Part shown: positions 2,705 through 45,319 of the stretch, piece after piece
Layout: each line of letters begins with the position of its first letter
How positions within the stretch are numbered: the stretch's first letter is position 1
Assembly: GCA_964636345.1 (NCBI GenBank)
Contig: CAZWRL010000002.1
Location: 1 to 52,880 of the forward strand
Source of the DNA: an uncultured Gammaproteobacteria bacterium
GTDB lineage: Bacteria; Patescibacteriota; Patescibacteriia; Magasanikbacterales; JBBTXJ01
DNA length: 52,880 nucleotides
Direction of reading: 5' to 3'
Made by a program: the position numbers and the translations under genes
Notes under the pieces: model-generated
Seen by the model: only the letters and a program-made list of their open reading frames with translations
The model's database searches: none
What the model was told of the DNA's origin: nothing

Positions 2705-3364
2705 ATGGCCTCGCTGTTTATTGTTGCAACGCCCATTGGTAATTTGGGGGACATCACGCTTCGGGCGCTTGAGACACTTAAAAGCGTTGATTTGATTGTT
2801 GCTGAAGACACGCGTCACACGCGGAAACTCCTCGCGCATTTCGATATTCACAAGCCCTTGCTTTCGTGCGAGGAGCATGTCACCGAAACACAGTCGCGTA
2901 AAGTACTAGCGCTTCTTGAAGAGGGAAAAAACCTCGCATTTGTTACGGACGCGGGCACACCAGCCGTGTCTGATCCGGGCGCGCGGCTCGTTGCCAAAGC
3001 CGTTGCCGCGGGGCATACTATTGTTACCGTGCCAGGAGCCTCTGCGGTGACGGCCGCGCTCTCTGTTTCCGGTTTTCCGGCAGACAATTTTGTGTTTTTT
3101 GGATTCCTGCCCCACAAAAAAGGGCGCGAAGCGTTTTTGAAAAAAGTGGCGGGCGCGAAGCGAACCGTGGTATTTTTTGAGTCAACACATCGCATCGGTA
3201 AATTATTGGAAGAATTAGAACAGTTAGTGCCACAGGATCGTCATCTCATTATTGCGCGCGAGCTGACCAAACAGTTTGAAACGATTTACCGCGGAACCAT
3301 CAAAGATATTAAGGAACAGCTTAAAGAAACGCGTGGAGAGTTTACGATTGTCATAGCCCCATGA
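2705..3364 (+). CDS. rsmI: 16S rRNA (cytidine1402-2'-O)-methyltransferase RsmI
   Basis: LFIVATPIGNLGDITLRALETLKSVDLIVAEDTRHTRKLL is a canonical RsmI N-terminus. The ATG at 2705 avoids overlap with the ferredoxin gene; the ORF is open from 2678. Confidence 0.9.
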   Translation: MASLFIVATPIGNLGDITLRALETLKSVDLIVAEDTRHTRKLLAHFDIHKPLLSCEEHVTETQSRKVLALLEEGKNLAFVTDAGTPAVSDPGARLVAKAVAAGHTIVTVPGASAVTAALSVSGFPADNFVFFGFLPHKKGREAFLKKVAGAKRTVVFFESTHRIGKLLEELEQLVPQDRHLIIARELTKQFETIYRGTIKDIKEQLKETRGEFTIVIAP

Positions 3365-4818
3365 AAAAGAAAAAATTTTATCTCACAACTCCCATTTACT
3401 ATGTAAACGATGTGCCGCACATCGGCCATTCATATTCAACCATTGTCGCGGATGTGCTGGCGCGTTATTATCGTGACCAAGGAAAAGAGGTGTTCTTTTT
3501 GGCCGGAACTGATGAAAACGCGCAAAAGAATGTGGAGTCCGCCCTGAAGAGTAATCTTGAGCGCACGACTGATACCCGCACCATGGTGCGGAAATACGTG
3601 AATACCATGTCAAAAAAATGGCAAGAAACCTGGAAAAAGTTGGACATCTCAAACGATGATTTTATCCGTACTACCGAAAAACGCCACACAAAGGCAGTTG
3701 AAAAATTTTGGGCCGCTTGTCTTGCCCGCACGGACATTTATAAAGCAACGTATGATGGTTTGTATTGCATCGGCTGTGAAGGATATGTAACCGAATCAGA
3801 TTTAATAGATGGTTTGTGCCCTCACCACAAACGCAAACCGGAAAAATTAAGCGAAGAAAACTATTTTTTTCGTCTTTCACGGTATAAAAAACCGATTTTA
3901 GAACACATAAAAAAATACCCGGAGTTTGTCCAGCCGGATTCTCGCCGTCATGAGATAATCGCGTTTTTGCGCAACCACGCGAATGATTTTTCTATCTCCC
4001 GCAAAAATCTAGCATGGGGGATACCGGTGCCGGGTGATTCATCGCAAACGGTGTATGTGTGGTTTGACGCGCTCATTAATTACATCAGCGCTATCGGTTA
4101 CAACACAAATAGAAAACAATTTAAAAAGTTGTGGCCCGCGGATATTCATATCGTCGGGAAAGATATCATCAAATTTCATTGCGTCTATTGGCCGGCCATG
4201 CTGCTCTCCGCGGGCTTACCGTTGCCAAAAACCATCTTCGCGCACGGTTTCTTCACCATAGATGGACAAAAAATCAGCAAGTCATTGGGCAATGTTGTAG
4301 ACCCACTGGCTATTGTGAAAAAATACAGTAATGATACGTTGCGGTACTATTTGTTGCGTGAAATCACCTTTGGTGAAGACGGGGATTTTTCATTTGATCG
4401 TTTGCAAAAGCGCTACGAAACCGACCTTGCCAATAATTTGGGAAATTTGCTCATGCGCGTGATTACGCTTTGCGTAAAGGGACGCTCGTTGTCAACGCCG
4501 AGACGAGGAGTCACTATGGAGCTCCCAAAAAGAATGAATAGGATGTGGCGCACCTACCATAAAGCGATGCAGAATTTGGCGTTTCACACGGCGCTTGATA
4601 GTGTGTGGAATCTTATAGCGGCCGCTAATAAACGCTTAACGGATGAAAAACCGTGGGAAAATCTTGCGTCCAAAAAAAGTGAAAAATGCGTATCAGAAAT
4701 TTTAGTTGAGCTTTTTCATGTTGCGTATCTTGTTGCGCCGTTTATGCCGGAAACGTCAGAAAAAATGCTGAAACAAATTAAAACTTTGAAAACGGAGCCG
4801 CTTTTTCCGCGGCTCTAA
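3361..4818 (+). CDS. metG: methionyl-tRNA synthetase (short form)
   Basis: HIGH-type motif (VPHIGHSYS), KMSKS-type motif (KISKSLGN) and a CxxC...CPHH zinc knuckle. ATGA overlap with rsmI. Confidence 0.95.
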   Translation: MKKKKFYLTTPIYYVNDVPHIGHSYSTIVADVLARYYRDQGKEVFFLAGTDENAQKNVESALKSNLERTTDTRTMVRKYVNTMSKKWQETWKKLDISNDDFIRTTEKRHTKAVEKFWAACLARTDIYKATYDGLYCIGCEGYVTESDLIDGLCPHHKRKPEKLSEENYFFRLSRYKKPILEHIKKYPEFVQPDSRRHEIIAFLRNHANDFSISRKNLAWGIPVPGDSSQTVYVWFDALINYISAIGYNTNRKQFKKLWPADIHIVGKDIIKFHCVYWPAMLLSAGLPLPKTIFAHGFFTIDGQKISKSLGNVVDPLAIVKKYSNDTLRYYLLREITFGEDGDFSFDRLQKRYETDLANNLGNLLMRVITLCVKGRSLSTPRRGVTMELPKRMNRMWRTYHKAMQNLAFHTALDSVWNLIAAANKRLTDEKPWENLASKKSEKCVSEILVELFHVAYLVAPFMPETSEKMLKQIKTLKTEPLFPRL

Positions 4819-5326: not shown

Positions 5327-6177
5327 GTTATTTTGATACACATTGTCATCCGCAGTTTAAAGCATTTGATAATGACCGCGACGAGGTATTGTGGCGTTGC
5401 AAGGAGCGCGATATGCGCATGATAGCGGTAGGCACGCAACGAGACACAAGTCAAGCCGCTCTTGAACTTGCACAAAAAAATCCAAAATATATTTTTGTGT
5501 CCGTGGGACTGCATCCCGTGCATCTGCATCCGCGTTTTGTTGATGAACAAGAGGGGGCGTTTAAAAGCAGAGAAGAAAATTTTGATGTTGATTATTATCG
5601 CACACTCGCCCGCGCGCCTGAAGTAGTGGCAATAGGGGAGACCGGCTTGGATTTTTATCACTTGCCAAACGATGTGTCGCGCGATGTCGTTATCAAAAAA
5701 CAGCACGAAGTTTTTTTAGCGCATATCGCGCTCGCGCAAGAAATGCAAAAACCACTGATTATTCATTGTCGTGAGGCATATCGTGAACTTGCGGATGTAA
5801 TAGAGCACCAGTACGGCGCTCACACCTTGCGCGGCACCGTTCACTGCTTTACCGGAAATGAAGAAGAAGCGGAACGCTTGGTCGCACTTGGATTCTACGT
5901 CGGTTTTACCGGCGTTATAACATTTCCGCCGAAAGCAAGCAACCCGGAGGCGCACGCGCGCTTACTTGAGGCGGTACGTCGCGTGCCGTTGGAACGCCTG
6001 CTGGTAGAGACCGACGCGCCGTACCTGGCGCCCGCGGCCTATCGCGGTAAGAAATGTGAGCCGTGGATGGTAGAGGAAGTGGTCAAAAAAATCGCTGAAA
6101 TAAAAGTAATTGATGCAGTAACTGTAGAGACAGCTACCGCGGAGAATGCCACGCATCTCTTTACCTCAAAACCGTAA
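5323..6177 (+). CDS. TatD-family metal-dependent hydrolase/DNase
   Basis: FDTHCHPQF start motif, GETGLDFY, IIHCREA and ETDAPYL motifs. Confidence 0.9.
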   Translation: MSYFDTHCHPQFKAFDNDRDEVLWRCKERDMRMIAVGTQRDTSQAALELAQKNPKYIFVSVGLHPVHLHPRFVDEQEGAFKSREENFDVDYYRTLARAPEVVAIGETGLDFYHLPNDVSRDVVIKKQHEVFLAHIALAQEMQKPLIIHCREAYRELADVIEHQYGAHTLRGTVHCFTGNEEEAERLVALGFYVGFTGVITFPPKASNPEAHARLLEAVRRVPLERLLVETDAPYLAPAAYRGKKCEPWMVEEVVKKIAEIKVIDAVTVETATAENATHLFTSKP

Positions 6178-6462: not shown

Positions 6463-7248
6463 ATGGTGCTTCCCCCACTTGCGGCCGAATCACTATTTAA
6501 TCTTGGGTCACTCCCTGTCACGAACGCGATGATTAACGCGTGGGTTGCGCTTGCGTTTTTTGTAGGCATTGCCGGAACACTTCGCGCGCGAATTACGCGC
6601 ATGCCGCGTGGTTTACAAAACGTAGCTGAATGGCTCCTTGAACGTTTGCTGGAATTTTTTGACCAAGTGACGAACGATCGCGCGAAATCAGAACGCTTCT
6701 TGCCGTTTGTTGGGACGCTTTTTTTCTTCATTCTGTTTTCAAACTGGATTGGCATTTTGCCGGGGATTGGATCAATTGGCATGTGGCTCCGTGTGCATGG
6801 CGAAATAGAATTGGTTCCGCTCTTTCGTCCCGCCAACAGTGATCTCAACATGACACTTGCGATGGGCGTGCTTGCCGTGACACTCTCGCACGTTTTTGGC
6901 ATCGTTACCATTGGTTTTTTCAAACACACCGGTAAATTCATCCAACTCGGGCATATTTTTCACAGTATTAAAAAGGGGCCCATGGCAATCTTTACGGCGC
7001 TGATTGAATTTTTCGTGGGGCTTCTTGAAATTATCAGCGAAATTGCTAAAATGGTATCTCTCTCGCTTCGGTTGTTTGGGAATATTTTTGCGGGCGAGGT
7101 CTTATTGACCGTGATGGCCGGTTTGATCGCTGTGCTAGTTCCCGTGCCATTTATGGCGCTTGAATTAATTGTTGGGTTGATTCAGGCGATGGTTTTTGCT
7201 ATGCTAACTCTCGTTTATTTAACCGTGGCGACATCAGAGCCACATTAA
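6463..7248 (+). CDS. atpB: F0F1 ATP synthase subunit a
   Basis: LSLRLFGNIFAGEVLL motif containing the essential Arg; multi-pass membrane protein. Confidence 0.93.
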   Translation: MVLPPLAAESLFNLGSLPVTNAMINAWVALAFFVGIAGTLRARITRMPRGLQNVAEWLLERLLEFFDQVTNDRAKSERFLPFVGTLFFFILFSNWIGILPGIGSIGMWLRVHGEIELVPLFRPANSDLNMTLAMGVLAVTLSHVFGIVTIGFFKHTGKFIQLGHIFHSIKKGPMAIFTALIEFFVGLLEIISEIAKMVSLSLRLFGNIFAGEVLLTVMAGLIAVLVPVPFMALELIVGLIQAMVFAMLTLVYLTVATSEPH

Positions 7249-29424: not shown

Positions 29425-29482
29425 TTATTTTTGCTTTCGCAAAAATAACAAAACGCCCCGTCCCGATAAATCGGGACGGGGC
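29424..29482. terminator. tandem hairpins forming a bidirectional terminator region between polX and the high-GC island
   Basis: An 11-bp AT-rich stem (29424-29449) and a 12-bp stem, GCCCCGTCCCGA-taaa-TCGGGACGGGGC (29455-29482). On the minus strand each is followed by a T-rich run. Confidence 0.75.
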
Positions 29483-29488
29483 TGAACT

Positions 29489-29947
29489 TCAGATCCGGTA
29501 CTGCGGAGCCGGCGTTTCGTGCCAGGGACGAAACTCGCCCATGGCCATCACCATGACTCGCCGATCCAGCTCACGCGCGAACGCGCGAGCGCTACGACGA
29601 TACTTTCCGCGCCACAGATCCTCACGCACCCACGAGCGCCGCACGTGCCGCTGCCACTTCCAGGAGGCGAACGGGACACGAGAGACACGCTCCGATTCTT
29701 CCCAGGCGATCTTCCTGAAGCTTCGCCGCTCGATGTCCTCCTGGATCATCTCAAGCTCAACTTCACGCGCTTCCAGAGCGGCGTCCCCCCGCTCCGCTGC
29801 CGACTCCCACATCCGATCCTCCGGCTCTTCGTCCAGGTCCAACAATGACAGAGCGGTATCGCCATCCGCCTCCAGTTCGTCTGGGTAGTCCTCCTCGGCA
29901 TCGCGGTCCGAGAAGAGGTCATCTTCCAGATCTTGCGCCCACGGCAT
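29489..29947 (-). CDS. hypothetical protein, island ORF B (152 aa; strongly acidic N-terminal half, Trp/Arg-rich basic C-terminal half)
   Basis: ATG at 29947 preceded by AAGGAGG (8-nt spacer). High G+C. No family recognised. The ORF-track extension to 30019 runs through an intergenic hairpin. Confidence 0.55.
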   Translation of the reverse strand: MPWAQDLEDDLFSDRDAEEDYPDELEADGDTALSLLDLDEEPEDRMWESAAERGDAALEAREVELEMIQEDIERRSFRKIAWEESERVSRVPFASWKWQRHVRRSWVREDLWRGKYRRSARAFARELDRRVMVMAMGEFRPWHETPAPQYRI

Positions 29948-29980
29948 AAACCGTGCCTCCTTGTTGTGGAAGAGAAAGGC

Positions 29981-30030
29981 CCGGCGTCCCACGTGTGTCC
30001 CGACAAGTCGGGATGACATGGGAACGCCGG
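29981..30030 (-). other. structured intergenic element between island ORFs A and B
   Basis: Outer stem CCGGCGTCCCA/TGGGAACGCCGG encloses the palindrome TCCCGAC-aa-GTCGGGA (29998-30013). Confidence 0.6.
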
Positions 30031-30040
30031 GCCGGTTCGA

Positions 30041-30859
30041 CTAGAAGAGCTCGAGGTCCCAGCGCTGCTTCTCGGCGCGGAACTTGCCCGGGATCACCCG
30101 GACGCGCATCCCCACGGTGTTGCCGTGGAGGAAGGCCAGGGCCGCGTTGCGCGAGCCCATGCCGCGGACCGTGTCCACGTGCACCAAGCCGACGTCGCGG
30201 CCGCTCTGCACGAAGATCCCGTAGTCCGCGTGGCGGACCACGGTCCCCTCGACCGTCTTGGCCAGGCGCTCCGCGCGCTGGCCGACGGCCGCCACGAGGT
30301 TCCGTCCGAAGTTCCGGCTGCAGTCCTCCACCCGCCGCCGCCAGGCCCGCCTAGGCGCCCCGTTCTGGTGCCACTCCTGGGGCGCGACCATGAACTGGCC
30401 GTCCTTGAAGACCATCACCGCCCGCGGGTTGGCGTCCTCGTCGTCGGGGTAGTCGTCCCCGTCCTCGTCGTCGTCCTCGCGGTACTCGATGCCCGCCGCC
30501 GCGAGCTCCTGCCGGACGAACGCCCGGGCCGCCATCTCGCCGTCCTCGTCGGACTGCGGGAGGGACGCGGGGTCCGCGAACTCCTCGCCGAACGCCTCGA
30601 GGGCCTCCAGCGAGATCTCGCGGGGGCGGCGGGCATCGACCGCGAGGTCGCACTCCTCCGACCGCGCCTTGTCGGCGCCGCCATGCGCCTGCGCGGCCTC
30701 GTCCCCGTCCTCCTCGGAGTCCGAGGTCAGCTTGAATCCGGCCCAGCCTGGCCCGAGGGCGATGAACGCCCGCCGCCGCGCCTCGCGCGGCGAGAAGCCC
30801 ATGTCGAACACCGGCCCCGTGGCCAACTTCCGATCCGTGGAACGCAGGGACGTACTCAT
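30041..30859 (-). CDS. hypothetical protein, island ORF A (272 aa) with acidic low-complexity centre and C-terminal S1/OB-fold-like domain
   Basis: ATG at 30859 preceded by GGAGGG (5-nt spacer). Codon third positions are almost all G/C. The C-terminus VEGTVVRHADYGIFVQSGRDVGLVHVDTV resembles S1 RNA-binding domains. An EDDDEDGDDYPDDEDANP run is present. Confidence 0.6.
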   Translation of the reverse strand: MSTSLRSTDRKLATGPVFDMGFSPREARRRAFIALGPGWAGFKLTSDSEEDGDEAAQAHGGADKARSEECDLAVDARRPREISLEALEAFGEEFADPASLPQSDEDGEMAARAFVRQELAAAGIEYREDDDEDGDDYPDDEDANPRAVMVFKDGQFMVAPQEWHQNGAPRRAWRRRVEDCSRNFGRNLVAAVGQRAERLAKTVEGTVVRHADYGIFVQSGRDVGLVHVDTVRGMGSRNAALAFLHGNTVGMRVRVIPGKFRAEKQRWDLELF

Positions 30860-30965
30860 GATTGCCCTCCAAGGCAATTGGGCCCGTGTTTATCACGGGC
30901 CACAGTTATGGGTAAAAAGACCATTTCACAAGGCAGGGACTTGCCCCCCACTTTGTGAAGAAAAC

Positions 30966-42456: not shown

Positions 42457-43866
42457 ATGTCTCGTGTTACTAAGCACACCCTTCTCTTTACCACTGCCTT
42501 TCTTGCGTTGCACGAACTCTCACTCATTGCGTTTTTTGTTGAGCCGCTCCGGCCGGTGTTATTTTTGATCCTGCTCGGTGCAGTAGCAGTATTCGTATTT
42601 TGGAAACCACACTATGCGGCAATTCCCATTATTCTTGAACTCCTGCTTGATTCCAGCGGCCATTTGTTTGAGTGGCGTGGATTGTCGTTGCGACTTTTAA
42701 CACTTGTGGTTGCGATAGTTGCGTGGTTATATCACGCAATCCGCGCGCGACAACTTGTTACTAAATTAAAAACACCGTTTACATTATTCTACCTGGCCAT
42801 TCTCACGATTGTTGCGCTGGCGGCGTATAACGGTTATCACAGTGGGCATGCGGTACAATCAATCATTGCGGATGCGATACCATTTTTGTATTTGGCGCTG
42901 TGGTATCCATTTCGTGAATTATTCCCTGAACGGAGCGGAGCGGAGTCGAAGGGTAGCGCTTCAACAAGCTCAGCGCACAATTTATTGATGTCACTCATCC
43001 TCGGCTCCTTCCTCGGCGCCGCGATATTGTCGCTCATAACACTCTTTCTTTTTTCATCCGGCTTGCAGGAAATTCACGGGTCGTTCTACACCTGGTGGCG
43101 TGATTGGGTGGCTGGAAAAGCAACAAGCACCGGCTTTGGATTTTTTCGCATCGTAACACCGTTGCATTTGTTCTTGACCGCGTTGGTGCCATTCGTGGTG
43201 CACCAACTACGTCATCAGCGATATGGCGCATTGCTTATCGTGACAACCCTCCTTGTCCCCGTTCTCAACTTCTCCCGCATTTATTTTCTCGCCATCATTC
43301 CCTCGACACTCGTGATGGCGTGGAAATTACCGTGGAAAAAAGTGGCGCTCACGCTTATTTTAATCGGCACTATTTCACTTGCCGAATACACACTTATCAA
43401 TCTCGCTGCATCGCGCGGTACATCGCTCGGATTTGAATTTATCACCAAACAATCGCGTGGAATTATCGACCCGGAATCAGAGGCATCCGCCTCCGCGCGC
43501 GCGGCCATACTCCCCCATTTGATTGAAAAAATAAAAAATCGCCCTGTGTTGGGCGAGGGACTCGGCACAACGGTCACCTATTACAATACATTTTTACAAA
43601 AAAAATTAGCCACCCCGCATCTTGACTGGGGGTACTTAGAGCTTGCGGTGGAATTTGGCATTATCGCCGCAATCTTCTTCCTCGCTGTGCTCATTTGGCT
43701 TCTGTGGTGGATCCGCGAGAGCACTCTCGGCGCCAGCGTCCTTGTGTTTCTTCTTGTAACAACACTCACCGCCCCCACACTTTTTCACGCCTACGGAATT
43801 TCGCTTATTTTAGCGATTTTTATGACAACTTTCCAACCAAAACTTGACAAGAATTCTCCGGCGTGA
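42457..43866 (+). CDS. O-antigen ligase/polymerase-like (Wzy_C) polytopic membrane protein
   Basis: At least 10 hydrophobic segments and a periplasmic-loop region. The ORF is open from a TTG at 42436. Contains an in-frame repeat-derived segment (ERSGAESKGSASTSSAHN). Confidence 0.7.
   Translation: MSRVTKHTLLFTTAFLALHELSLIAFFVEPLRPVLFLILLGAVAVFVFWKPHYAAIPIILELLLDSSGHLFEWRGLSLRLLTLVVAIVAWLYHAIRARQLVTKLKTPFTLFYLAILTIVALAAYNGYHSGHAVQSIIADAIPFLYLALWYPFRELFPERSGAESKGSASTSSAHNLLMSLILGSFLGAAILSLITLFLFSSGLQEIHGSFYTWWRDWVAGKATSTGFGFFRIVTPLHLFLTALVPFVVHQLRHQRYGALLIVTTLLVPVLNFSRIYFLAIIPSTLVMAWKLPWKKVALTLILIGTISLAEYTLINLAASRGTSLGFEFITKQSRGIIDPESEASASARAAILPHLIEKIKNRPVLGEGLGTTVTYYNTFLQKKLATPHLDWGYLELAVEFGIIAAIFFLAVLIWLLWWIRESTLGASVLVFLLVTTLTAPTLFHAYGISLILAIFMTTFQPKLDKNSPA
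42926..42985 (+). repeat. palindromic repeat element inserted in frame in the ligase-like gene
   Basis: GAACGGAGCGGAGCGGAGTCGAAGGGTAGCGCTTCAACAAGCTCAGCGC shares the GAGCGNAGTCGA(A/G)GG core with the element at 44498-44553. It contains an AGCGC/GCGCT hairpin. Confidence 0.5.
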
Positions 43867-43872
43867 TACTGT
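43844..43872 (+). promoter_or_regulatory. candidate promoter of the structured RNA
   Basis: TTGACA (43844-43849), a 17-nt spacer, then TGaTACTGT (-10 at 43867-43872). It overlaps the ligase-like gene stop codon. Confidence 0.45.
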
Positions 43873-44126
43873 ATTAAACATAAAAGTAAACCCCGTTGGC
43901 TCAAGGCGGCTGGCGGGTACCATCAACCGAAGAAAGGCGGGCGATAAAAAATGCGCGTTTCCACGTCCTGACAAGGCCGAGGACGCGTCATTGTGCTCCG
44001 CGGCCACGGAGCACCTCCCGTCTTGAAGGAAGATGGTCTTAAGCCGGAACACCCGCGGGGCTTGGAGGGCGCCCCCTCTGAGTCCCGCGGGTACACATTC
44101 AAATCCCGCGCCGTAAAGACGATGGG

Positions 44127-44142
44127 TCCCGACTTGTCGGGA
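44127..44142. repeat. 16-nt palindrome TCCCGACTTGTCGGGA (copy inside the structured RNA)
   Basis: The stem sequence is identical to the copy at 29998-30013, and a close variant lies at 45022-45039. Confidence 0.7.
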
Positions 44143-44436
44143 TGATACCGTCGGCACACGGCGCGAATGAACGGGGGCTCGTGACGGGAAACCGTGCGCG
44201 CTCCACAGTCCTGCCGCTAGGGGAAAGCACCGGAGACGTCCGGAACGCTACTAGCGGTATCTTCCCCTCGTGTGGTGCTGCAGCACCGTAGTCCGCCGTT
44301 GGACGACGGCGTGCCAATACTCCCCAGTTGGGGTGAGGTGGCGAGGTTAGTTTTCCTTCCCTTGTGTGACGGGTACAAACCGTTTCTGGGCTGCCTGTCA
44401 GTGGTCCAGACATCCTCTGGGTGCGCAGAGGACTTG

Positions 44437-44488
44437 CCCCTCGTGAGCGCTGATCGACGGATCAGTACTCGCGAGGGGTTTTTTATTT
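44437..44488 (+). terminator. strong Rho-independent terminator
   Basis: A 19-nt arm, CCCCTCGTGAGCGCTGATC, a gacg loop, then GATCAGTACTCGCGAGGGG (one U-G pair and one 2x2 internal loop), followed by TTTTTTATTT. Confidence 0.85.
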
Positions 44489-44497
44489 GACGCGAAG

Positions 44498-44553
44498 CGT
44501 CATTGAGATTCCTCGACTCCGTTCGCTTTCGACTCACTTCGCTCGGAATGACG
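44498..44553. repeat. palindromic repeat element at the GT2 gene 3' end (supplies its last codons and stop)
   Basis: CGTCATT (44498-44504) pairs with AATGACG (44547-44553). Inside are two tandem units of about 17 nt (minus strand AGCGAAGTGAGTCGAA and AGCGAACGGAGTCGAG). The GT2 stop codon TGA (44534-44536) lies within the element. Confidence 0.55.
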
Positions 44554-45319
44554 AAAGGCCGTGTTTTTCCAAAATAACCCGCTCCGCTTCGCGATACCGC
44601 CGCACTTCGCGCGGTGTCCAGCCGAAGATGGGCCATGGAATTTTGTGAACAAATGATGGCAACCACACGCTCATGCCGCTTTTACGTGGCGTGATAGAAA
44701 ACAACACCTCCGGCACCCACACGCCGGTTTTTTTTTGCGCAAGCATCATGAGCCACAAATCCCAGTCCTGAAATTTTTTTAATGATTCATCGAATCCTGA
44801 AAAATCTTTTGCGCGAATCAAACTCGTCGTCGTAATATACGGCATTTCCCGCAAGCGCTCTGCAGAAAACGATCCACACGTAAATGTTTTGAATCCAAAT
44901 TTGAACGACGAATACGCGTACGACACCTCCGGATGTTCCGCAAGCGCGCGATGCATTTTTTCTAAATAGTCGGGATGCATGGTGACATCGGCGTCGCAGA
45001 AGATAATATGGTCATCCTGGAGCCCCGACTTGTCGGGGCGATAGGATCCCGACTGGATTCTATCGTCGCCCGCGGCAGGCTCCTCCAGAATGACAGAAAA
45101 TCCTCTGTTTCTCGCCGCCGCCGCGCCGCGATTTTCTTGCCGAACAAACGTGATAGGCAATTTGTTCTCCCATGCACGGACAACCACTTCCGGATTATCC
45201 GTACTGCCGTCATCCACAATGACAATACGATCCGGCCGTAGCGTTTGCCCATTCAAAGAAGAAAGGCACTCCCCGAGTGCCTCCGCGTGATTGTAAACTG
45301 GAATAACGACGTAAAGCAT
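44534..45319 (-). CDS. family 2 glycosyltransferase
   Basis: VVIPVYNHAEALGECLSSL...IVIVDDGSTDN...ENRGAAAARNRG...FCDADV is a GT-A fold signature. An in-frame insert of about 25 aa lies between the ARN and DxD motifs. Confidence 0.9.
   Translation of the reverse strand: MLYVVIPVYNHAEALGECLSSLNGQTLRPDRIVIVDDGSTDNPEVVVRAWENKLPITFVRQENRGAAAARNRGFSVILEEPAAGDDRIQSGSYRPDKSGLQDDHIIFCDADVTMHPDYLEKMHRALAEHPEVSYAYSSFKFGFKTFTCGSFSAERLREMPYITTTSLIRAKDFSGFDESLKKFQDWDLWLMMLAQKKTGVWVPEVLFSITPRKSGMSVWLPSFVHKIPWPIFGWTPREVRRYREAERVILEKHGLSSFRAK
45022..45039. repeat. variant palindrome GCCCCGACTTGTCGGGGC inserted in frame in the GT2 gene
   Basis: Translated on the minus strand as YRPDKSG. A half-copy, GGATCCCGAC, follows at 45045-45054. 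Confidence 0.65.

Follow-up and report, generated by a model that had tools for sequence, protein, structure and literature searches.

To our knowledge, only a few large, intricately folded bacterial RNAs of unknown function have been described, namely OLE, ROOL, GOLLD, HEARO and raiA. OLE occurs in Bacillota hosts, where it neighbours the gene oapA. Cryo-electron microscopy has shown that OLE, ROOL and GOLLD form dimers or larger assemblies (PMC12286853). OLE (Rfam RF01071) dimerises via a symmetric kissing loop, L9.3, with the internal palindrome GGCC in many members, and ROOL (RF03087) and GOLLD (RF01998) are RNA-only multimers that are held by kissing loops, lack a protein partner and belong to phages or prophages, where they often lie close to tRNA islands (PMC12286853). 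Here, we analyse an element in a contig from groundwater Patescibacteria (CAZWRL010000002.1, positions 1 to 52,880; this whole 52.9-kb stretch is called the window throughout). The element occupies a gap of about 600 nucleotides (nt) between a gene for an O-antigen-ligase-like (Wzy_C-like) protein and a convergent GT2 glycosyltransferase gene. We are highly confident that it encodes a genuine structured non-coding RNA belonging to a new family. The best explanation, which we hold with moderate confidence, is that it represents a new lineage-restricted family of 'large ornate RNA' that acts in trans, with self-association via a hairpin called H1 as its most likely mechanistic feature; self-association through H1, considered by itself, is a tentative proposal that draws on analogy.

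How does this RNA compare with the described ones? Like OLE, it is about 600 nt long, chromosomal rather than phage-borne, and has many helices set among invariant sequence; both also adjoin a gene for a multi-pass membrane protein. Unlike OLE, it has its home in the Patescibacteria, shows no sequence or covariance-model similarity to that RNA, and lies near none of the oapA/oapB/oapC-type partners, the neighbours being Wzy_C, GT2, GT4 and flippase genes. Its distribution is also far narrower, and its turnover far faster. ROOL and GOLLD are likewise large, ornate and of unknown function, and the H1 hairpin of the window RNA is common to phage RNAs that, as they do, often adjoin tRNA genes. However, neither model matches the window RNA or the viral RNAs that bear H1. 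The window RNA also sits among housekeeping genes of the chromosome, no tRNA occurs in the 52.9 kb, and there is no phage or plasmid similarity.

Homologous RNAs were found in four or five groundwater Patescibacteria related to the source organism, at the syntenic gap, that is, between the Wzy_C-like gene and the convergent GT2 gene. The Wzy_C-like protein forms only about ten clusters at >=50% identity among 5.8 billion proteins, and the contigs that encode it keep the gene order. A full-length variant is present in Uhrbacteria RIFCSPLOWO2_02_FULL_51_9 (L088-L090, the same as L100; L089 in what follows). Two further variants from Hainich groundwater, L085 (the same as L086 and L105) and L103 (the same as L109, and 94% identical to L085), are full-length except that the roughly 110 nt corresponding to window positions 44150-44262 are missing. 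L083, from a metagenome-assembled genome labelled Magasanikbacteria, has the 3' module of the RNA only; L097, also from Hainich groundwater (ERZ1292627), has the 5' module only; and L092, at a contig end, has the 5' part only. Two JGI contigs (L081 and L082) match the window letter for letter and add no information. Synteny of the locus and its neighbours is thus kept in the relatives examined, and the RNA itself is patchy.

The transcription signals of the element are conserved across these loci. The promoter (43844-43872, plus strand, as are all RNA features below) consists of a -35 box TTGACA at 43844-49, a 17-nt spacer, an extended -10 TG at 43864-65 and a -10 hexamer TACTGT at 43867-72. 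A preliminary description of the window had proposed just this promoter, and its -35 box, spacing, TG and TAnnnT are kept in all eight loci read: the pattern cTTGACA-N17(TG)-TAnnnT, with TG at -15/-14, is common to the window, L083, L085, L089, L092, L097, L093 and L096, and the columns TGATA..T are invariant in alignment A2. Moreover, the TGA stop codon of the Wzy_C-like gene (43864-66) is itself the 'TGn' of the extended -10, an overlap kept in all relatives. At the other end lies an intrinsic terminator (44437-44484), also proposed earlier as a hairpin with 19-nt arms and T6, in which a stem with 19 positions, 18 of them paired (44437-44478), and a GACG loop are followed by U6. The terminator sequence is nearly identical in L083 and L089; L085 and L097 have other hairpins, each followed by U7, and every homologous element closes with a hairpin and a U-run. 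A simple consensus scan flagged neither promoter nor terminator, because the -10 hexamer matches at only 3/6 positions and the terminator stem has a mismatch. The doubts about both signals are settled by the comparative data, which show that both are conserved. With transcription starting 6-9 nt past the -10 hexamer and ending at the U-tract of the terminator, the predicted primary transcript would span 43878-44484, about 605 nt. The element would accordingly be a stand-alone non-coding RNA, made from its own sigma-70-type promoter and ending at an intrinsic terminator before GT2, that acts in trans as a folded particle rather than as an mRNA, riboswitch or antisense RNA. The RNA is predicted to be made and stable.

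Positions 43873-44488 were read directly. In 200-nt segments, the GC fraction of the element is 0.58-0.65 and that of its flanks 0.45-0.53; the element overall stands at 0.63 against 0.49 for the whole window, and the especially rich stretch that had been pointed out at 44041-44100 indeed has 42 G or C in 60. The minimum free energy of the plus strand is -301.4 kcal/mol, compared to -243.3 ± 6.6 in dinucleotide-preserving shuffles (z = -8.8). Values of z = -7.4 and z = -7.3 were obtained for the minus strand and for the homologous RNA of L085, respectively. The helices listed in the preliminary description are all found at their coordinates: eight contiguous pairs at 43993-44014, 18/18 at 44052-44091, 8/8 in CGCGCCGU/ACGGCGCG, four in the GAAA hairpin at 44184-44195, the interleaved pairings 44214-20/44251-57 (7/7) and 44221-25/44262-66 (5/5), and hairpins at 44230-43, 44294-311, 44322-33, 44368-84 and 44414-31. 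The G-U pairs cited as evidence of orientation are correct at 44060:83, 44063:80 and 44064:79, and the fourth, 44068:84, is a coordinate slip, the two nucleotides being G and C. The plus-sense assignment holds, in that the conserved promoter and terminator and the G-U pairs agree. At about 605 nt with about 20 helices, the RNA is longer than about 500 nt and has many covariation-supported helices, as a large ornate RNA should. These helices would be arranged in two modules, a 5' module (43892-44042) consisting of a hairpin and then a three-way junction, and a 3' module (44052-44431) that runs from a long, variable helix through a 15-nt invariant block, the candidate pseudoknot and a near-invariant multi-helix junction to a pyrimidine tract and several hairpins.

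The 5' module provides evidence for pairing. Its first hairpin, P1 (CCCGUUGG/CUGGCGGG, 43892-43917), is kept with changed sequence in homologs, being rebuilt as CACCAG/CUGGUG in L089 and as CGCCGUCU/GGAUGGCG in L097, with three and five both-side changes, respectively, relative to the window. The rest of the module (domain 1, 43916-44042) is defined by an RNAalifold consensus, pair counts and a covariance model, R1. In the RNAalifold consensus, an outer helix P2 (43920-28 with 44028-36) is separated from helix P3 (43935-41 with 44017-23) by a purine-rich internal loop, which reads GAUGAA/AGAA in homologs, and a three-way junction bears a variable hairpin, P4 (~43948-43990), and hairpin H1. Covariation was assessed in an alignment of six sequences (A4), with 500 column shuffles and with partners slid by 1-3 columns as controls. 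In this alignment, 95.2% of the cells are paired, and both-side changes occur in 12 of the 28 pairs, compared to 5.0 ± 1.5 in the shuffles (none of the 500 reaches 12) and 0-3 with slid partners. Model R1 scores 97.6 bits on the window.

Hairpin H1 (GUGCUCC-GCGGCCAC-GGAGCAC, 43993-44014) has an invariant loop in homologs: within the consensus NAAGGCCAY, nucleotides G87, G88, C89, C90 and A91 never change in the six homologs. The self-complementary GGCC makes this loop a candidate for a symmetric kissing interaction. The loop of P4 in the window also holds AAGGCC.

The 3' module opens with the long variable helix P6 (44052-44091), 18 base pairs in the window. The base of P6 (CCCGCGGGG/CCCCGCGGG) is kept, and its distal part is wholly different in length and sequence among L085, L103, L083 and L089. 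In the apical part of P6 of L083 (5500-5565), AAGGAGGU-N8-AUG precedes a 13-codon open reading frame (ORF), which occurs in no other homolog and is probably fortuitous.

Beyond P6 lies the region 44107-44165, with the invariant block AAUCCCGCGCCGUAAAGACGAUGG (core 44111-25) and, in the window, the helices CGCGCCGU/ACGGCGCG and GACG/CGUC and the CUUG-loop hairpin P9 (44126-44143). The sequence CCGTAAAGACGATGG is identical in all five full-length variants. For the helix CGCGCCGT/ACGGCGCG of the preliminary description, the 3' partner is absent in L085 and L103 even though the 5' strand is invariant, which makes this part of the model doubtful. Because these two homologs lack the 3' strands of both the CGCGCCGU/ACGGCGCG and the GACG/CGUC helices, neither helix can be universal, and a small hairpin, CCGU[AAAGACG]AUGG, is a possible alternative for the invariant block. 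The next hairpin, P10, is capped by a GAAA tetraloop (44174-44205); at its position in L083 and L089 there is a hairpin of unrelated sequence, CCUCG..GAGCCC-GUG-GGGCUC..CGGGG.

The proposed H-type pseudoknot (44214-44267) has gained some support. Its stems S1 (44214-20/44251-57) and S2 (44221-25/44262-66) are identified by complementarity, and S1 shows a C-G to U-A change in L083 and a rebuilt stem in L089. Enclosed by S1 and S2 is P13 (44230-43), a hairpin with a GACG loop; it reads CCGGA/UCCGG in the window and CUGGG/CCCAG in L089, amounting to two compensatory changes. The whole pseudoknot segment is missing in L085 and L103.

The 3' core (44266-44346) is a multi-helix junction closed by CCUCG/CGAGG (44266-70/44342-46). 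It includes P15 (GGUGC-UGCA-GCACC, 44274-87), P16 (CGCCGUU-GGAC-GACGGCG, 44294-311; CGCCGUUGGRCRACGGCG as the consensus of homologs) and P17 (44313-39), whose outer pairs change on both sides, from G-U/C-G to C-G/A-U. All 78 cells of the core alignment are paired, and P14-P16 never vary among four distinct sequences. The invariant GGUG-CUGCAG-CACC of P15 (44274-44287) forms a perfect 12-nt palindrome (GUGCUGCAGCAC), and the unrelated RNA sequence of L093 has hairpins capped by CUGCAG and GUGCAC (3360-3380, 3445-3480). Such palindromic apices, at 44274-44287 and in L093, are a candidate second site of self-pairing.

Downstream of the core, a pyrimidine tract (UUUUCCUUCCCUU, 44351-44363) is predicted to be single-stranded; it is shared by the window, L083 and L089 and reads UUCCUUUCUUUCU in L085. 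Sites complementary to this tract are not enriched elsewhere in the window. The module ends with hairpins P18 (44368-84), which has a GUAA tetraloop in L083 and L089, P19 (44385-44410), with a U-A to C-G change in L083, and P20 (44414-31), rebuilt in L083 and L085 in an uncertain register. Outside domain 1, compensatory or wobble changes are thus seen in P1, the P6 base, S1, P13, P17 and P19.

Could the region instead encode a protein, or be a known RNA in disguise? The size and stability of the element resemble those of a housekeeping RNA, its minus strand has stop-free frames, and one sequence, GAUGAAAG, bears a loose likeness to a motif of RNase P. A highly divergent RNase P, transfer-messenger RNA (tmRNA), signal recognition particle (SRP) RNA, 6S RNA, riboswitch or intron, or a minus-strand protein gene, is nevertheless extremely unlikely. 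With respect to coding, the earlier judgement that the gap holds no credible ORF is borne out by comparison of frames, phases and indels with the homologs. In pairwise alignments of the window with its homologs, 35 of the 37 gaps are not multiples of three. As one would expect of DNA so rich in GC, the minus strand does have stop-free frames of 114-197 codons, and minus-strand ORFs were placed in the RNA region of L089 and L086 by gene callers. The conserved blocks, though, are read in differing phases of these open frames among homologs, and no conserved reading frame exists in the window RNA and its homologs. Because indels shift the frame and conserved blocks change phase, the region is non-coding, and a minus-strand protein gene is ruled out. 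A riboswitch or cis-regulatory leader is likewise excluded, because the RNA is closed by a terminator and no gene follows it in the sense direction, the next gene (GT2) being convergent.

Searches against known RNA families were negative throughout, in agreement with the original statement that the element has no match to them. Over the full 52.9 kb, Rfam 15 at the gathering threshold gives no match and ARAGORN reports neither tRNA nor tmRNA; the window as a whole thus has zero tRNA, rRNA or Rfam family at that threshold, despite its ribosomal-protein and rpoA genes. In a permissive search (E up to 10) of 43700-44650, the best matches have E = 1.6-6.3 and belong to unrelated families, and Rfam searches of five homolog loci gave nothing relevant. 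RNase P, tmRNA, SRP, 6S, riboswitch and intron models have no match at E = 10 in the window or the five homologs. Moreover, close relatives have only part of the element or lack it altogether, which is impossible for an essential RNA.

Several individual look-alikes were rejected. The signatures of RNase P and tmRNA had been reported absent from the sense strand, and indeed no Rfam model matches at E up to 10 and ARAGORN is negative. Helix P4 of RNase P is formed by the CR-I (GAGGAAAGUCC) and CR-V (ACAGAA..CGGCUUA) strands. On direct reading, GAUGAAAG loosely resembles the CR-I motif GAGGAAAG, but the strands GAUGAAAG/AGAAGG flank a single helix as an internal loop, which is not the P4 topology; RNase P RNA (RF00010/RF00011) has no model match at E up to 10, and the RNA is absent in L094. 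For tmRNA (RF00023), both ARAGORN and the model are negative, and a T-loop-like UUCAAAU at 44097-44103 is unconserved (UGCAAAU, UUCCAAU and CUGAAAU in homologs). The hammerhead-like CUGAUGA..GAA of L085, L092, L097 and L103 is CGAAGAA in the window, lies in a two-way internal loop and has no Rfam match. A K-turn look-alike, read by eye, was rejected on topology or lack of conservation. The OLE model has no match at E up to 10 on the window and none on the homologs, and the ROOL and GOLLD models have no match on either. The preliminary description had left a choice between a divergent known RNA and an undescribed large ornate one, and these results favour the second. The RNA is thus a new family within the descriptive kind 'large ornate RNAs of unknown function', set apart from the known families by the Rfam models. 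Literature searches on structured RNAs of Patescibacteria and on the H1 sequence found nothing relevant, making this a candidate for the first such RNA pointed to in that group.

The two modules of the RNA can occur apart. In L097 the 5' module stands by itself and is followed by a hairpin and U7 terminator of its own; in L083 the same promoter leads straight into the 3' module, which comes with a 150-nt insert, and both the 5' module and H1 are missing; L085 and L103 lack about 110 nt of the middle. In addition, no conserved long-range pairing joins the two modules. A potential long-range pairing of 44139-50 with 44255-66, for which complementarity in the window is 92%, was rejected because L083 and L089 do not keep it. 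Perhaps, then, the element is a tandem of at least two RNA genes or modules, independent of each other apart from a common promoter and possibly separated by processing: a 5' RNA of ~170 nt with H1 and a 3' RNA of ~400 nt. We regard this arrangement as possible, on the doubtful side, considering that no terminator or conserved processing signal is found between the modules in the window, L085 or L089, and that the L097 locus, with its 5'-only RNA, has an N10 assembly gap.

Another alternative is that the element has no function of its own and serves in cis, as a 3' untranslated region or insulator whose stable structure and strong terminator keep the convergent priA-def-fmt-wzy and GT2-GT4-flippase operons apart. 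On the plus strand, the RNA is preceded by priA, def, fmt and the gene for a membrane protein of 469 amino acids, in the homologs of which PF04932 (Wzy_C, O-antigen ligase family) is found; on the minus-strand side, GT2 (44534-45319), the next gene after the RNA, is followed by GT4, a Wzx/MurJ-like flippase and then rpsI-rplM-rplQ-rpoA. The terminator ends the RNA before the convergent GT2 gene. Given that the element comes directly after the Wzy-like gene, read-through from that gene must enter it. However, a near-consensus promoter is conserved in front of the element, its twenty helices with compensatory changes and its invariant loops far exceed what a terminator needs, and one relative (L094) manages with a gap of 16 nt. 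A purely cis-acting role is therefore very improbable.

The H1 hairpin connects the window RNA to RNAs of phages. A scan of IMG/VR with the H1 consensus (GCTCCNNNGGCCAYGGAGC) gave 73 loci, and 55 viral contigs carry the exact 19-mer of L097, GCUCCAAAGGCCACGGAGC (GCTCCAAAGGCCACGGAGC), of which less than one copy is expected. These copies have many flanking contexts, often directly after or between tRNA genes. The viral H1 is usually followed by UGAC and a second hairpin with a GAAAGA loop and a covarying stem (CCUCG/CGAGG, CCCCG/CGGGG, GUG/CAC). The result is an uncatalogued phage motif, GCUCC-AAA[GGCC|GUAC]AC-GGAGC, UGAC and a second hairpin, present in IMG/VR loci L191-L300. It appears either as a spacer element of about 50 nt or at the head of a non-coding stretch of 0.3-1 kb (examples are L196 192-235, L193 4024-4388 on the minus strand, L191 297-1317 on the minus strand, and L279 1546-1600), and no Rfam family matches these viral H1-bearing elements. 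Stem variants such as GCGCC/GGCGC show that the viral element is a hairpin. A relative of the longer viral RNA that has no H1 lies in Flavonifractor phage Castelnaud (L264; ON453903.1, 22244-22744), upstream of the genes for an HNH endonuclease and the small terminase. That region is annotated as three small hypothetical proteins; it has no Rfam match and is probably a mis-annotated RNA.

What does the loop of this hairpin do? A scan that left the loop free (GCTCCAAANNNNACGGAGCTGAC) gave 70 loci, with GGCC in 47, GUAC in 16 and other tetranucleotides in seven. When these were pooled with the matches to the H1 consensus and their flanks clustered at 90% identity, GGCC was found in 16 clusters and GUAC in eight, with both in one. 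Both tetranucleotides are self-complementary, and the switch between them alters two adjacent loop nucleotides together. The symmetric kissing loop L9.3 of OLE shows the same switching of adjacent nucleotides between palindromes, from GGCC to GAUC or AGCU (Kretsch et al. 2025, PMC12286853), and loop L21a of GOLLD shows a GC/CG dinucleotide switch (PMC12286853). By analogy, the palindrome switching in the phage motif suggests a symmetric kissing loop. In the window RNA, the purine-flanked GGCC loop of H1 would bind its counterpart on another copy of the RNA to form dimers or larger assemblies. The likeness to OLE is that H1 has an invariant GGCC in a loop of 8-9 nt; dimerisation of the window RNA is only predicted. 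In the kissing hairpin of the HIV-1 dimerisation initiation site, unpaired purines flank a self-complementary stretch at the centre of a 9-nt loop (AAGCGCGCA). The H1 loop, (N)AAGGCCAC, resembles it as a structural analogy only: the palindrome has 6 nt in HIV-1 and 4 nt in H1, and the former belongs to a viral genomic RNA with no evolutionary relation to H1.

Considering this connection, could the RNA, or at least its H1 module, have been acquired from phage or other mobile DNA, as a relative of the tRNA-adjacent phage RNAs? The identical 19-nt hairpin in 55 viral contigs would fit such an origin, as would the patchy presence, modular turnover and fast evolution of the RNA. The hairpin GCUCC-AAAGGCCAC-GGAGC is identical in the phage motif and the window, and an AAAGAC-containing loop also occurs in the invariant block of the window RNA (CCGUAAAGACGAUGG). 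Everything outside the 19-nt hairpin differs, however: the viral elements are anywhere between ~50 nt and 1 kb long, and no tRNA gene adjoins the Patescibacteria RNA. The similarity to viral loci is limited to H1, since model R1 matches them only at model positions 78-96 and nhmmer finds nothing more. BLAST of the RNA against phage and plasmid collections gave no match, and when viral contigs were scanned with CCGTAAAGACGATGG, with the P15+P16 block and with P16 by itself, there were zero hits or the number expected by chance. Nor does the window hold, close to the RNA, a gene for an integrase or a tRNA or any other gene of a mobile element. An origin from phage is thus improbable.

The RNA might also be a scaffold or decoy for proteins, either as part of a ribonucleoprotein in the manner of OLE or as a sponge of the CsrB or 6S type. 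The invariant hairpins of the RNA (H1, GGUGCUGCAGCACC, CGCCGUUGGGCAACGGCG and the CUUG hairpin) would then be protein sites, possibly working in concert with the adjacent membrane protein. The sequence of P14-P16 is invariant while neighbouring helices are rebuilt, which suggests sequence-specific recognition. The RNA is always 3' of the gene for the Wzy_C-family membrane protein, much as OLE adjoins oapA. Moreover, the CUUG hairpin TCCCGACTTGTCGGGA (44127-44142) recurs in the sense orientation in intercistronic mRNA gaps of the same genomes. Exact copies lie at 29998-30013 (minus strand) of the window, between two ORFs of a GC-rich island, and at 7096-7111 (minus strand) of L089, in the GT4/GT2 gap; with up to three mismatches there are six matches, compared to 0.38 expected, and further sites in the window are 29461-29476 (minus strand) and 45023-45038 (plus strand). 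This recurrent hairpin could be a REP-like (repetitive extragenic palindromic) element or a protein-binding hairpin. Against a scaffold, no gene for a candidate RNA-binding protein is linked to the RNA, the synteny of the whole region is conserved in any case, with L094 keeping all the genes and no RNA, and the CUUG hairpin is replaced in L085. We therefore consider a scaffold or decoy rather unlikely. The GC-rich island just mentioned (29450-30900) is 1.4 kb long, with a GC fraction of up to 0.76 in a genome of 0.49; its two minus-strand ORFs (30041-30877 and ~29489-29951) have no Pfam match and lie between the genes for a PolX-type polymerase and an M23 peptidase, and it looks like foreign DNA.

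The two-module, protein-scaffold and phage-origin alternatives are compatible with the reading that we favour, a trans-acting large ornate RNA that may self-associate through H1, and do not exclude it. Several observations do weigh against that reading. The 5' end of the transcript is only inferred, by reference to the promoter. Some relatives do without the RNA: in L094, whose Wzy-like protein is 53% identical, the gap has shrunk to 16 nt (5383-5399) with all genes kept, and in L096 (5320-5950) and L093 (3245-3540) a consensus promoter, joined in L096 by a terminator, stands before unrelated sequence. The RNA, as judged by these comparisons, is lineage-restricted, dispensable or replaceable, and fast-evolving, yet structurally constrained where present. 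Given five sequence variants from one small clade, the power to detect covariation is low, and in the 3' core 17 of the 20 tested pairs never vary, so that the sequence is strikingly fixed and its pairing uninformative. H1 kissing in the Patescibacteria RNA is extrapolated from the phage copies, because GGCC is invariant in the Patescibacteria; none of their H1 copies shows a palindrome switch. The palindromic loop could alternatively be a site for a dimeric protein, or could pair intramolecularly with the second GGCC loop. Finally, the role of the RNA may be accessory, because the family is tiny and evolves fast.

The same comparisons bear on how the locus evolves. Between the window and L083, L089 and L085, the RNA is alignable over 35-67% of its length at 74-85% identity, whereas the flanking genes align almost fully, at 73-90% identity. 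The unrelated sequence in L096 is not unusually stable (z = -1.2). The intergenic site appears to be a hotspot for the turnover of small transcription units. The fmt gene assigns the source organism to the Patescibacteria. Among 80 fmt loci from that group and others, neither nhmmer nor model R1 found a similar RNA, and a pattern scan of JGI metagenomes with two invariant blocks of the 3' core returned only the same organisms plus eight chance matches in high-GC coding DNA. An essential housekeeping RNA is ruled out by this combination of restricted distribution, dispensability and fast evolution.

The known large ornate RNAs have each opened new biology, most recently RNA-only cages and dimers. 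With the RNA described here, the Candidate Phyla Radiation would gain its first such candidate, and genomes of 1 Mb, as found in that group, can carry little ballast. The RNA also comes with two handles. One is the 19-nt hairpin common to phage RNAs, where the switch between two palindromes is a direct prediction of self-pairing; the other is a natural deletion series in close relatives, with the 5' module only, the 3' module only, both or neither. A bolder possibility, which we consider doubtful, is that the ultra-small Patescibacteria carry an unseen class of large self-assembling RNA that uses a portable GGCC kissing hairpin in its 5' module, common to the uncatalogued phage RNAs, to build RNA-only dimers or cages in the way of OLE, ROOL and GOLLD. 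If this is true, quaternary RNA assembly would extend to a new phylum, seemingly built from exchangeable modules.

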